A DNA stretch of 64,000 nucleotides from a virus. Taxonomy: Duplodnaviria > Caudoviricetes. Positions 55,481 through 59,870 of this stretch are shown one piece after another. The first letter of the stretch is position 1; every line of letters starts with the position of its first letter. The stretch lies in the IMG/VR virus record IMGVR_UViG_3300005611_000002, positions 1-64,000 of that record. One strand, 5' to 3'. Position numbers and translations under genes: made by a program. Below the pieces are notes generated by a model. The model saw nothing but the letters and a program-made list of their open reading frames with translations. It was not told the DNA's origin and searched no databases.

Positions 55481-55855
55481 ATGACTGATAAGAAATCGTT
55501 GTTAGATACAATCTCGCAAGAGTCTGAACGCTTCCAAGAACTGATTCGACAGGAAGATATTGAAATGGATCAGTGGTGGGATGAACTCCCTCAAGAGGAC
55601 CAAATGCGAGCGTTCTACTCAGTCGTGAAGCGTCTTGTAAAAGGTGATATAACTGATAGAGGCTCTTATCGTTATGTTCTATATGACGTGTTTGGTTTTG
55701 GGGCCGAGAGTTACATGCTCGGAATGAACTGCGGTTATATGACACTACACAACAGCATCTATACACCGGAAGAGATGCGAGAGCTTCGTGATCGTGAACT
55801 TGCTTCAAAAGGTATTGAAGTAGAAACTACAAAATGGGATATGAAAAATGAGTGA
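55481..55855 (+). CDS. Hypothetical protein
   Basis: GSYRYVLYDVFGF. Confidence 0.7.
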   Translation: MTDKKSLLDTISQESERFQELIRQEDIEMDQWWDELPQEDQMRAFYSVVKRLVKGDITDRGSYRYVLYDVFGFGAESYMLGMNCGYMTLHNSIYTPEEMRELRDRELASKGIEVETTKWDMKNE

Positions 55856-56375
55856 ATGGTATATAGCACCAGAAATGGTGATGAATGATATTGCTAAACT
55901 TGATGCTTCTATGTTGTTTGGCTCTAGATCTATGGCGTCACGTCCTGCTGTAGAAGGGTTTGATCCTGCGTTTATGATCGGTTCTCAGATCACAGATGAG
56001 ACCGACTGGGACTTCAGTGCTCCTTACACTGAAGAGAATCACGCGGCTCTTATTGAAGCCGGTTTTACGTATTGGCCGCCAGATGATCTATCTTATAAAG
56101 ATAGTTTGACTACTGGAGTGTATATCAAGACATACATGCATAAGTTTGATATGGACAATCCTGTAATTTATAGCACTCCTCCTGTAGCAAACGTCGTTCT
56201 TCGTAACGACTTCTATATCTTTCGTCAAGTATGGGACTCTATAGATCCAGAGTTCTATTACAAGCATATCTGGAAACGCAGTCCAACTTACGATTTTCAA
56301 CAATTGTCATTGACAAAAGAAACTATCCGTGATATAATGAATCAACTATTTAGGACTGCTAAGGAAATGATATGA
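55848..56375 (+). CDS. Putative nucleotidyltransferase-fold protein
   Basis: LFGSR...TDWD. Confidence 0.5.
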   Translation: MSEWYIAPEMVMNDIAKLDASMLFGSRSMASRPAVEGFDPAFMIGSQITDETDWDFSAPYTEENHAALIEAGFTYWPPDDLSYKDSLTTGVYIKTYMHKFDMDNPVIYSTPPVANVVLRNDFYIFRQVWDSIDPEFYYKHIWKRSPTYDFQQLSLTKETIRDIMNQLFRTAKEMI

Positions 56376-56407
56376 GCGACATCTGGGTAACATCCGATTC
56401 ACATTAA
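56372..56407 (+). pseudogene. Orphaned N-terminus of the metallophosphoesterase (MSDIWVTSDSH*)
   Basis: Matches MSKDIWVSSDFH of 57335; ends exactly at the HNH stop. Confidence 0.85.
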
Positions 56408-57237
56408 TTCTGATAATTCTTACAATTATCAAAATGATATCTTGTCATACTTGACGCACCACCTTTTTTATTGCAATGAGGGCACTCTTTTATGACTTGA
56501 GGCCCTTTGGGTTTTCTCATTTTTTCTTTTGTAGCATCACTTAATTTTCTTCCTTTTCTAATTTTGCTTAATTTTTGACGGACAGTATCGTCAAAAATTC
56601 TCCCTTTATTCGGGCCTGTCAATTCTCCACTTTTTATTCTAGGATCTTCTACTGAGACATAGTGATAGTTACCTTCGGAATCTTTCATTGTAGTCATGCC
56701 TTTAGTTATACCAGTAAGATTTTCATTTTTAATAAATTCTTCCCGTGTAACTTTAATTATATCATTTTTTTCTGTTTTAGCAATTACTATATTTTTTGCT
56801 TTGCATGATATTTTGCGCGATATTTCTTTTTTTCTTTCTCCTGACATATTGGCATGATATTCTAAAGTAGTTTTTGATTGTAACATTCTAAATTCTTTAT
56901 TGAGACTTTCATATAATCTACTGTTGATTTTTTTATTCTGATAGCTTCTTAATGAGTGGGCTGCAAATGTTATGCTATTTACAGTAGGAAAAGCTTTCCA
57001 TAATATCACATGAGCAATAAAATGCTGTCTGGCGGTTAAAACCGCGCAATTCCAAGGATACAATTTAAAAGATTCGTATTTAGGAAACATATCATTTGCT
57101 TTTGGGCATATGTGATGTTTTTCAGTATATCCTTCATAATCAACATTTTTTAGTTGACATTGCTCGATGAATGTTATATAACGGTTTATATAATGGGGAT
57201 TATGTGGTTTTGAAGACAATATGGTATAAATATCCAT
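56404..57237 (-). CDS. HNH homing endonuclease (MobB/E-like)
   Basis: EKHHICPK...N...LTARQHFIAH; C-terminal CPHC...HFDNC. Confidence 0.88.
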   Translation of the reverse strand: MDIYTILSSKPHNPHYINRYITFIEQCQLKNVDYEGYTEKHHICPKANDMFPKYESFKLYPWNCAVLTARQHFIAHVILWKAFPTVNSITFAAHSLRSYQNKKINSRLYESLNKEFRMLQSKTTLEYHANMSGERKKEISRKISCKAKNIVIAKTEKNDIIKVTREEFIKNENLTGITKGMTTMKDSEGNYHYVSVEDPRIKSGELTGPNKGRIFDDTVRQKLSKIRKGRKLSDATKEKMRKPKGPQVIKECPHCNKKGGASSMTRYHFDNCKNYQN

Positions 57238-57334
57238 TGCTGGAACTCCTTTCTTTAGGTGGTATAGTTCTAGGGTTAGTGGGTATTTGCCGTACCGCGA
57301 CTAACACTATTATTTATAATGGAGCATACATATA

Positions 57335-57886
57335 ATGTCAAAAGATATTTGGGTTTCTAGTGATTTTCATTTAAATCACTCAAACATTTTGAAATTCACT
57401 GATAGTAATACTGGAAAACCGATCCGACCTGAATTTTCATCCGTTCAAGAAATGAATGAAATTATAATACAAAGACACAATAGCTGTGTAAAACCTGGAG
57501 ACAAATTTTACACTCTTGGAGATGTGTTCTTTGGTGACAAGGAATGGTTCAAAAAAATGTGGCCTCGTCTGAATGGTAGCAAGCGTCTCATCGTTGGCAA
57601 CCACGACGATATCAAGTTTCTATCCTCTGGTGGATTCTTTGCAAAGGTCATGATGTGGCGCATGTTCCCTGAGTTTGGTTTGATGTTTAGCCATGTTCCG
57701 CTTCATGAAAGCAGTTTGATGCGAGGAGCAAAAGGTGACAAGCCGATGTTAAATGTGCACGGGCACACTCACAGTAATGGATCGCCAAAAGGCCCTTATA
57801 CTTCAGTCTGTGTGGAATTGAGAAATTATACCCCAGTCCACATTGAAGACTTGGCGGCGGAGGCTAAAAAATTAATTAATGTGTAG
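57335..57886 (+). CDS. Calcineurin-like metallophosphoesterase
   Basis: SDFH, LGD, GNHD, SH.P, HGHTH. Confidence 0.92.
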   Translation: MSKDIWVSSDFHLNHSNILKFTDSNTGKPIRPEFSSVQEMNEIIIQRHNSCVKPGDKFYTLGDVFFGDKEWFKKMWPRLNGSKRLIVGNHDDIKFLSSGGFFAKVMMWRMFPEFGLMFSHVPLHESSLMRGAKGDKPMLNVHGHTHSNGSPKGPYTSVCVELRNYTPVHIEDLAAEAKKLINV

Positions 57887-58744
57887 TCTACCTCTGACCC
57901 ACCCTTCCTGAATAGATTGATATTTTTCTATCATTTTATTGACTTTACCGTTATTAATACAAATCTTTCCGGTTGTTCCCACGTGTTTTGGTTTCTTGCT
58001 GTATACCCTCCCTCTGGTCCATCCTTCGGGTATATGTTCTCCCTTAAACATTTTAGAAGTTTTTCCGTCATTGATCCAAACTGATTTTTTTGGTGAGTTT
58101 TTTGTCATACCTCTATACCAACCTTCAGGAATAGTTTCTTCGGGTTTTATTCTTTTATTTGTTTTTCCATTTGTGATGGTTATAGTTCCAGCATTATTCC
58201 CTCTTAATTCGCCAGTTTTAAATCTAACGTCGTCGCTAGAAACGTAATGACCGTTTCCGCTTCTATCTAAAGCAAATGTTTTTCCCTTCGTGTGCCCGCT
58301 AAGTTCTTTATTCTCGTCGAATTCTTTTTTGCTTACTCTGAATACTTTATTATCATGTTTTACACTTACTGTTCCGGACATTTGTTCAGAAACTATAACG
58401 GAATAAGCCACTTTTATAGATTCATATATTTTACTACTTTTTATTTCATTGTAATTACTCATAATACCAAATGCGCGAATCATTGACTCATTTTGATACA
58501 CTTTCCATAACATCATATGAGCAATAAAATGTTGTCTGGCGGTTAAAACTGCACAGTTCCACGGATAATTGCTAAATGAACTATACTCAGGAAACATATC
58601 CTTTGCTTTGGGACAAATGTGGTGTTTTTCAGTATAACCTTCATAATCAACATTTTTTAGTTGACAATGTTTGATAAATATGATATAACGGTTTAAATAA
58701 TGGGGATTATGTGGTTTTGAAGACAATATGGTATAAATATCCAT
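57872..58744 (-). CDS. HNH homing endonuclease, paralog of 56404-57237
   Basis: Near-identical N-terminal ~80 aa; different C-terminus with (W)INDG...GW.RG repeats. Confidence 0.88.
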   Translation of the reverse strand: MDIYTILSSKPHNPHYLNRYIIFIKHCQLKNVDYEGYTEKHHICPKAKDMFPEYSSFSNYPWNCAVLTARQHFIAHMMLWKVYQNESMIRAFGIMSNYNEIKSSKIYESIKVAYSVIVSEQMSGTVSVKHDNKVFRVSKKEFDENKELSGHTKGKTFALDRSGNGHYVSSDDVRFKTGELRGNNAGTITITNGKTNKRIKPEETIPEGWYRGMTKNSPKKSVWINDGKTSKMFKGEHIPEGWTRGRVYSKKPKHVGTTGKICINNGKVNKMIEKYQSIQEGWVRGRLHIN

Positions 58745-58839
58745 TGCTGGAACTCCTTTCTTTTAGGTTGCAAGTTCTAGAGTTAGTGGGTATTGACAGT
58801 ACCGCGACTAACATTTTTATTTATAAAAGTAAAAATTCG

Positions 58840-58956
58840 GGCCATATCCATCAGAACAAGTCTCCAAAGGGACCTTACCATTGTGTATGTGTAGAACAGA
58901 CGAACTACACTCCTGTTCACATCGAAGATCTAGCAAAAATTGCGAGAAAGATCTAA
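58840..58956 (+). pseudogene. Orphaned C-terminus of the metallophosphoesterase
   Basis: GHIHQNKSPKGPYHCVCVEQTNYTPVHIEDLA vs GHTHSNGSPKGPYTSVCVELRNYTPVHIEDLA. Confidence 0.9.
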
Positions 58957-59312
58957 TGGCAAATGTATTCGTATTCGGCTCTAATCTTGCTGGAAGGCAT
59001 GGTAAAGGTGCTGCGCTGTACGCCAAACAACACTACGGCGCAGTATATGGAGAGGGTATCGGTAGAACTGGTAACTCATACGCTATTCCAACTAAAGGTT
59101 ATCAATTGAATGTTCTTTCGTTAGAACGTATTCAAGACTTTGTCACAGAGTTCGTTCAACATACACGAGAGAATCCTGAAGATACTTTCCTGCTTACACC
59201 AATTGGAACTGGTTTGGCTGGTTATGATAAGACTGAGATATTCAAACTAATTCGTAACTGTGCACCACTTCCTTCTAATATCGTATTCACAAAGGAGTGG
59301 TTTAACTTATGA
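58956..59312 (+). CDS. Conserved phage protein (VFVFGSNLAG.HG.GAA family, macro-like)
   Basis: Motif plus YAIPT and T.IG.GLAG. Confidence 0.75.
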   Translation: MANVFVFGSNLAGRHGKGAALYAKQHYGAVYGEGIGRTGNSYAIPTKGYQLNVLSLERIQDFVTEFVQHTRENPEDTFLLTPIGTGLAGYDKTEIFKLIRNCAPLPSNIVFTKEWFNL

Positions 59313-59870
59313 GTAAGTACGAAGTAGCACCCGGTCTATGGATCGGTTCTGAGATCGGTGACATCAATCGAGAAATCAAGAGTCTTATGAAACGACTCGT
59401 AGATGGCGACGAGAGTGTCCTACCCGAGATCACTCGCCTTTCTCGTGAAAAAGAGAAACTGATGATGCCTAAGAGACTAAGGAGAGAAAAATGAACGTAG
59501 GTGAAGCAATTGAAGGACTATTCTACGCATTTGTCGTTGCGGTGACCGCTGCAATTTTTCTTGCAACTTATGTGCTCTCGCAGACAGTTTTTTCATTGAC
59601 ACCTTGGGATGTCTGTGTTAAGATGGAAACAGACGCTGCAAAAGTGCAGTGTATGGAGGCACATTATGACTAAAGAACAACTACTCATCAACCTTGAGTA
59701 CTGGGCAGACTGTTTGGAGAACCCTACCTACAACAATCTTGAAGTGGGCTTTAGACACACGCCTCTCTCCAAGGACGAGATCATACAACGATATAAAGAT
59801 GAATGCCGCACGACTCGAATCGCTATACTGAGAGTGATTGAGATGATAAACGAGGATGGAATAGAATAAA

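Follow-up and report, generated by a model that had tools for sequence, protein, structure and literature searches.

Two homing endonuclease cassettes probably supplied both ends of a phage phosphoesterase gene

The phosphoesterase (PE) gene described here lies in the first 64 kb (64,000 nucleotides, hereafter the window) of IMG/VR record IMGVR_UViG_3300005611_000002, a complete virus sequence of 194,645 bp that has terminal repeats. The source phage is uncultured and T4-like, and its genome carries tRNA and tmRNA genes. Judged by its identity to an uninvaded ortholog, the working PE gene is a three-part mosaic in which a native core is held between two foreign ends, each linked to an endonuclease gene, as an earlier note on this DNA had proposed. 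We consider it probable that two related Mob-type HNH homing endonuclease cassettes invaded this one gene by homing, each bringing a foreign end with it.

The intact gene (57335–57886, plus strand, 183 codons) is flanked by two inverted endonuclease genes, and beyond each lies a second, orphaned copy of the nearer PE end. On the upstream side, the orphan N-terminus (MSDIWVTSDSH; 56372–56407, plus strand) runs for 11 codons to a stop created at the junction, and its last codon is overlapped by the stop codon of HNH1, the endonuclease gene of the N-end cassette (56404–57237, minus strand, 277 residues). The HNH1 leader (57238–57319, minus strand) is followed by a cassette-borne ribosome-binding region for the working PE start (57320–57334, plus strand), in which the sequence reads GGAG at 57320–57323, 11 nucleotides ahead of the new start codon. 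On the downstream side, the paralogous HNH2 of the C-end cassette (57872–58744, minus strand, 290 residues) overlaps the PE 3′ end by 15 nucleotides; its leader (58745–58826, minus strand) precedes the orphan C-terminus (GHIHQN...ARKI; 58840–58956, plus strand), which has 38 codons and a stop. Reading of the sequence and its open reading frames placed all of these features where the earlier note had listed them. The PE N-terminal motif pattern occurs exactly twice in the six frames of the window (in the gene and in the N orphan), as does the pattern GH.H...Y.P (in the gene and in the C orphan); with each end motif occurring only twice in 64 kb, the duplication of the PE ends is not due to chance. 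A whole-genome search returned the single PE gene plus the C orphan and nothing further. The two cassettes have ~335 nucleotides in common, and because these are only 88–89% identical, the cassettes must be separate copies rather than one repeat collapsed in assembly. An Rfam search of 56000–59400 found no intron or other family, and a megablast of the locus against a phage collection gave no match.

A metagenome scan with a PE alignment yielded 80 further loci, and the closest uninvaded PE ortholog, L038, served as the reference for a mosaic test. At the DNA level, nucleotides 1–180 of the working gene (the imported N tract, codons 1–60 including the D-x-H motif, 57335–57514, plus strand) are ~60% identical to L038; codons 61–142 (the native body with the GD, GNHD and H motifs, 57515–57760, plus strand) are 87% identical (214/246 nucleotides); and the C-terminal 117 nucleotides from codon 143 are 57% identical (67/117). 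The last of these belong to the imported C tract (GHTH..., codons 143–183, 57761–57886, plus strand). Identity to L038 switches sharply at codons 60/61 and at about codon 143, the latter boundary being good to ~4 codons. The corresponding protein identities are 64% for the N tract, 95% for the body and 71% for the C tract. As the earlier note had expected, the orphans match the uninvaded ortholog better than the working ends do: the N orphan is identical at 30/33 nucleotides (91%), and the C orphan at 104/117 (89%) where the working C end reaches 67/117 (Fisher p = 6e-8). Because these identities are like that of the native body, the two orphans are, on this comparison, the native PE ends. Over its first 34 codons the C orphan differs from L038 by seven synonymous and no nonsynonymous changes, a substitution pattern that resembles that of the working body (24 synonymous and four nonsynonymous codon differences) and so indicates that the C orphan was stranded recently. 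Native codons 12–60 are gone from the genome, their place taken by the imported N tract. The foreign C tract is 81% identical in amino acid sequence to the cassette-linked C end of another invaded phage, L043, and likewise 81% to the C end of L044. Three loci (L044:621–1196, L064:2998–3573 and L008:3957–4469) carry PE alleles with a native C end of the GHTH...CVELR type and no nearby endonuclease gene; these are candidates for the source lineage of the foreign C end of HNH2-type cassettes.

The same layout was found in four other metagenomic phage assemblies, of which two are N-end and two C-end cases. The N-end carriers are L002 (enzyme 59% identical to the window's, orphan of 15 codons) and L063 (enzyme 46% identical, orphan of 48 codons); the C-end carriers are L043 (enzyme 67% identical), whose orphan starts at GH as in the window, and L053 (enzyme 41% identical), whose orphan starts ~4 codons later. 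Only the end on the endonuclease side is foreign: identities are 61% (N), 99% (body) and 94% (C) between L063 and L072, and 57%, 87% and 94%, respectively, between L002 and L045. About 70 of the 80 metagenomic PE loci have a single PE match and no endonuclease match.

Natural stages of the invasion can be read from near-identical contigs. L072 carries the naive allele on a contig near-identical to those of L063 and L065, and L063 is its invaded counterpart, whose orphan agrees with L072 in 45 of 47 compared codons. L065 (2998–3534) joins orphan-type codons 1–45 to cassette-type codons 46–60. The gene bodies of L072 and L065 are 99–100% identical to that of L063, the only one of the three with an endonuclease gene. 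At the C end, the invaded L043 is paired with L011 (1–160), in which the endonuclease gene is absent and the working C end of L043 continues to a crossover, followed by the orphan tail of L043 and the same downstream flank. The hybrid alleles of L065 and L011 should be cut-resistant.

The invaded gene matches phrog_547 (phosphoesterase) at 1.8e-44, and its profile matches PDB entry 1xm7 at 1.3e-13. Its structural model (predicted local distance difference test score, pLDDT, 93) gave a Foldseek match to the same entry at 4.5e-11, alongside fold matches to SbcD, YfcE, LpxH, Rv0805 and Mre11. Pfam returned a hit below threshold (E 0.15) and NCBIfam no significant family. All five metal-binding motifs (DxH, GD, GNHD/E, H and GHxH) are present in the working copy, and residues D10, H12, G62, D63, G88 to D91, H120, G143, H144 and H146 show no variation across 42 sequences. 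Based on the model and these motifs, the working gene encodes a complete calcineurin-like metallophosphoesterase that looks functional.

A profile of local nucleotide conservation across 69 distinct uninvaded PE alleles peaks at codons 55–63 (G-D motif), 83–93 (GNHD), 139–147 (G-H-x-H) and 165–171, and the two boundaries shared among carriers coincide with the first and the third of these peaks. On the N side, the earlier note had placed the cut at D-x-H. The orphan does stop there in this genome, but the imported tract is 60 codons long and ends at G-D, and the D-x-H boundary is not common to the other carriers (orphans of 15 codons in L002 and 48 in L063). We thus rejected D-x-H as the N-side target, the shared boundary being at the G-D motif (motif II). 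The VYH triplet that precedes LGDV is altered to FYT or YYC in all three N-type carriers and kept in almost all of the uninvaded alleles listed, which fits a target next to the G-D motif. On the C side, the junction at G-H-x-H is common to the window and L043, at G143 in both; in L053 the junction is ~4 codons further in, at ~Q147.

HNH1 matches phrog_655 (homing endonuclease) at 1e-36 and phrog_12434 (HNH endonuclease) at 2.5e-18; HNH2 matches phrog_655 at 1.5e-31 and also phrog_12434. A tblastn search aligned HNH1 to genes of T4-like phages that carry Mob-like HNH or mobile endonuclease E annotations, at ~29% identity over 92–98% of its length, with E values down to 5e-15. Residues H41, H42, N63, H72 and H76 (HH..N..H..H) are invariant in 12 members of the endonuclease family; neither enzyme had a significant family match in Pfam or NCBIfam. 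By these matches, both are assigned as Mob-type free-standing HNH homing endonucleases, and both genes are equipped with a start codon, leader and late-promoter motif of their own, on the strand opposite to PE.

The earlier note had further claimed that the two enzymes share the HNH domain and differ in their C-terminal modules, and the alignments agree: HNH1 and HNH2 are 82% identical over residues 1–85 and 34% over the rest. For the same two portions, HNH1 is 69% and 54% identical to the L002 enzyme and 68% and 40% identical to the L063 enzyme, while HNH2 is 76% and 64% identical to the L043 enzyme and 80% and 43% identical to the L053 enzyme. By these values, the enzyme tails group by the PE end that is attacked (three cases at each end). 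The nuclease head of HNH1 is closer to that of HNH2 in the same genome than to those of its N-type counterparts (68–69%), and a shared DNA block from the leader to about codon 80 (56994–57319 and 58501–58826) is 88–89% identical, with the leaders themselves at 89%. The closeness of the heads points to exchange, homogenisation or a module swap within the genome; the sequences suggest gene conversion or a module swap between the HNH1 and HNH2 heads.

Taken together, a model for the locus emerges. Each cassette would consist of an endonuclease gene in inverted orientation, a leader with a late promoter for that gene, and a linked foreign copy of one PE end. The N-end cassette would have brought a ribosome-binding site and codons 1–60, leaving native codons 1–11 as the upstream orphan; the C-end cassette would have brought codons 143–183, the last of which overlap the 3′ end of the cassette's endonuclease gene, and displaced native codons 143 to the stop downstream as the second orphan. 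We infer that endonuclease-free alleles are cut by HNH1 around codons 48–62, beside the G-D motif, and by HNH2 at or near G-H-x-H. Repair would then draw on a co-infecting donor, by homologous recombination on the gene-body side, while the far-side junction may form either by an illegitimate (microhomology) join or through homology from the donor's own orphan; the illegitimate, one-sided route fits the variable lengths of the N orphans. The linked foreign end would be immune to cutting because its target codons differ, and later recombination between the orphan and the working copy may delete the endonuclease gene and yield an immune hybrid allele.

Several observations weigh against this model. 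No donor genome was found for the imported N tracts, and those of the three N-type carriers are only 53–64% identical to each other, from which it follows that the association between N tract and endonuclease is old or that the donors are diverse. No fully syntenic uninvaded genome was found either: the genes flanking PE in L038 differ from those in the window, no relatives of the upstream gene were found among viral contigs, and relatives of the downstream gene were found but none syntenic with PE. With N orphans of 11, 15 and 48 codons, the left junction on that side marks no common cut site, and both cut sites are placed from boundaries and allele associations. Examined for the beta-beta-alpha-metal fold, the HNH1 model (pLDDT 73) gave only generic helical matches and no significant nuclease in Foldseek and VIA-align, and PDB sequence searches with the endonuclease gave no significant HNH match. 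Lastly, L065 and L011 can be read either as deletions by repeat recombination or as conversion tracts that left the endonuclease gene out from the start.

The foremost alternative, possible though doubtful in our estimate, makes the orphan itself a part of the mobile unit: the layout would have formed once per lineage and would spread by two-sided homologous repair, such that the orphans in the window are partly donor-derived. In keeping with this, the window and L043, with enzymes that share 67% identity, both have the leader–orphan junction at codon G143; the orphan of L063 hardly differs from the allele carried by its population mates; and the orphans are in frame and undecayed. However, the orphans of the window match L038 at the level of the body (89–91% versus 87%), as native ends left in place would, the N orphans of 11 and 15 codons offer only 33–45 nucleotides of homology, and the junctions vary by lineage both on the N side and, as G143 versus ~Q147, on the C side. 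An improbable second alternative regards the endonuclease genes as passengers in a mosaic made by general recombination between divergent PE alleles of co-infecting phages. T4-like phages do recombine heavily, and cleavage by HNH1 and HNH2 is itself an inferred step; yet in six of six duplicated-end cases with this endonuclease family the enzyme gene lies exactly between the orphan and the foreign end, with only the adjacent end foreign, and none of the ~70 loci (of 80) that have no endonuclease match carries a second copy of either end motif. Although direct repeats of the PE ends flank each insert, in-place tandem duplication followed by divergence, or an assembly chimera (the artefact that the earlier note had set against its own proposal), is contradicted on so many counts as to be hardly credible: in DNA, the working C end is only 57% identical to the orphan C end, which itself reaches 89% to the gene of a different phage, the foreign C end has its 81% amino acid match in L043 and L044, the cassette repeats are 88% identical and not identical, and four independent assemblies show the same layout.

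The closest known parallel to cassette invasion with a replaced gene end comes from fungal mitochondria, in which mORF ‘gene hybrids’ are described for atp6 of Allomyces macrogynus and for atp6, atp9, cox2 and nad3 of Glomus (PMC3630166). In both settings, an endonuclease gene enters the end of a gene with a foreign in-frame copy of that end, and the native end is stranded beyond the insert and is closer to relatives; in Glomus, the native end is 91–98% and the inserted end 64–81% identical to relatives (PMC3630166), compared to 89–91% and 57–60% in the phage. The differences are equally clear. The host is a mitochondrion there and a phage here; the endonucleases are of the LAGLIDADG or GIY-YIG type there and HNH Mob-type here; and the endonuclease reading frame is on the same strand and often in phase there, whereas here it is inverted with its own late-promoter leader. 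Only C-terminal replacement is described there, while in the phage the N-terminus is replaced too, as are both ends of a single gene. The phage layout functions as an mORF hybrid does, yet falls outside those element families.

T4-like phages harbor free-standing Mob and Seg homing endonucleases that spread by ‘intronless homing’ with co-conversion of flanks (PMC2988022; for MobE, PMC2790892). The present enzymes share with them Mob-like HNH homology, the free-standing state, late-promoter control, patchy presence among related phages and the transfer of neighbouring sequence along with the endonuclease gene. In contrast, the T4 genes are intergenic or divide one gene into two functional parts (nrdA of Aeh1, gene 60 and gene 43), and the described T4 cases leave no duplicated, stranded end beside a replacement end (PMC2988022). 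The portion of PMC2988022 that treats one-sided intron homing in T4 describes homology on one side of the break as sufficient, with the other junction formed at microhomology after nuclease degradation. This is an experimentally shown route that would give variable orphan lengths; as covered there, it concerned a laboratory construct with an intron, unlike the natural working mosaic gene seen here. Searches of the literature found no published account from phages of a homing endonuclease with a duplicated or replaced gene end next to it, which does not prove that none exists. The layout of gene-end replacement is known from fungal mitochondria, and its phage HNH version was not found described.

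We tentatively suggest, as a generalization that may well prove too broad, that terminus replacement is a third route, beside introns or inteins and gene splitting, by which phage homing endonucleases enter catalytic codons. The cassette would carry a spare end of the gene that is immune to cutting, and the native end, once stranded, would be retained to serve as a homology arm in later rounds of homing. Deletion through recombination of the repeats would leave immune hybrid alleles, with continuing turnover of gene-end modules in phage populations, and the paralogous enzymes would be retargeted by tail swaps while head and leader are homogenised. The locus illustrates how a selfish nuclease, by bringing a spare end that would resist cutting, can occupy the best-conserved codons of a phage gene with no intron, no intein and no loss of the gene. 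The 60-codon and 41-codon foreign patches in a 183-codon gene offer a concrete source for fine-scale mosaicism of phage genes, and because naive, invaded and endonuclease-free, presumably immune alleles all occur in nature, the homing cycle of a free-standing phage endonuclease becomes open to testing. Annotators should take short orphan reading frames beside endonuclease genes as stranded gene ends, and the ends of a gene that adjoins an endonuclease may differ in ancestry from its body.

Expression signals were read at the level of motifs. There are 22 copies of the T4 late-promoter motif TATAAATA, where ~4 are expected, and its only two minus-strand copies in the window are at the heads of the HNH1 and HNH2 genes, inside the leaders (57311–57318 and 58818–58825). 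Plus-strand copies lie within codons 2–4 of both genes, the one in HNH1 (57225–57232) directed into the PE gene and the one in HNH2 (58732–58739) into the C orphan and the downstream gene. A predicted sigma-70-type promoter (TTGACA, 17 nucleotides, TG-TATAAT; 56310–56338, plus strand) matches the consensus at 12 of 12 positions with an extended −10 element; it lies within the 3′ end of the upstream gene, just 5′ of the native PE start. By this consensus match, it would have driven native PE, and any transcript from it would now have to read through the inverted HNH1.

Both orphans are coupled to neighbouring genes, as the earlier note had described. The stop codon of the upstream gene (55848–56375, plus strand, 175 residues, no family match) overlaps the start codon of the N orphan (ATGA), and the start codon of the downstream gene (phrog_2072; 58956–59312, plus strand) overlaps the stop codon of the C orphan (TAATG).

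Relatives of these enzymes and of the locus were also observed in other settings. The zinc-finger/NUMOD3 tail of HNH1 was rejected as a PE-specific module: none of the 50 loci found with HNH1, most of which match the tail only, has a PE gene. Outside the window, a GIY-YIG-type endonuclease gene of the same phage (genome positions 91272–92096; L012:1272–2096, minus strand) adjoins the major capsid gene; it has the same leader (79% over ~90 nucleotides), and its C-terminal NUMOD3/zinc-finger tail resembles the one in HNH1. It seems that the endonucleases of this phage have arisen by shuffling of nuclease heads and DNA-binding tails. Flank duplication was likewise rejected as a general trait of the HNH family, seven other members of which (L013–L020) are found in other contexts with no duplication above that of shuffled sequences. 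Two family members (L015:1937–4378 and L018:1953–3948) lie between the halves of split-intein genes and one (L020:31–2943) inside a split DNA polymerase gene, all with no duplicated gene end. With the PE-end context, these arrangements give one HNH family three modes of life inside genes. At L068:1927–3498, a different, 302-residue endonuclease-like reading frame on the same strand (2039–2947) follows an orphaned PE start of 16 codons; beyond the frame lies another PE copy, which appears frameshifted after D-T-H. From this arrangement, the PE N-terminus is targeted by more than one endonuclease family.

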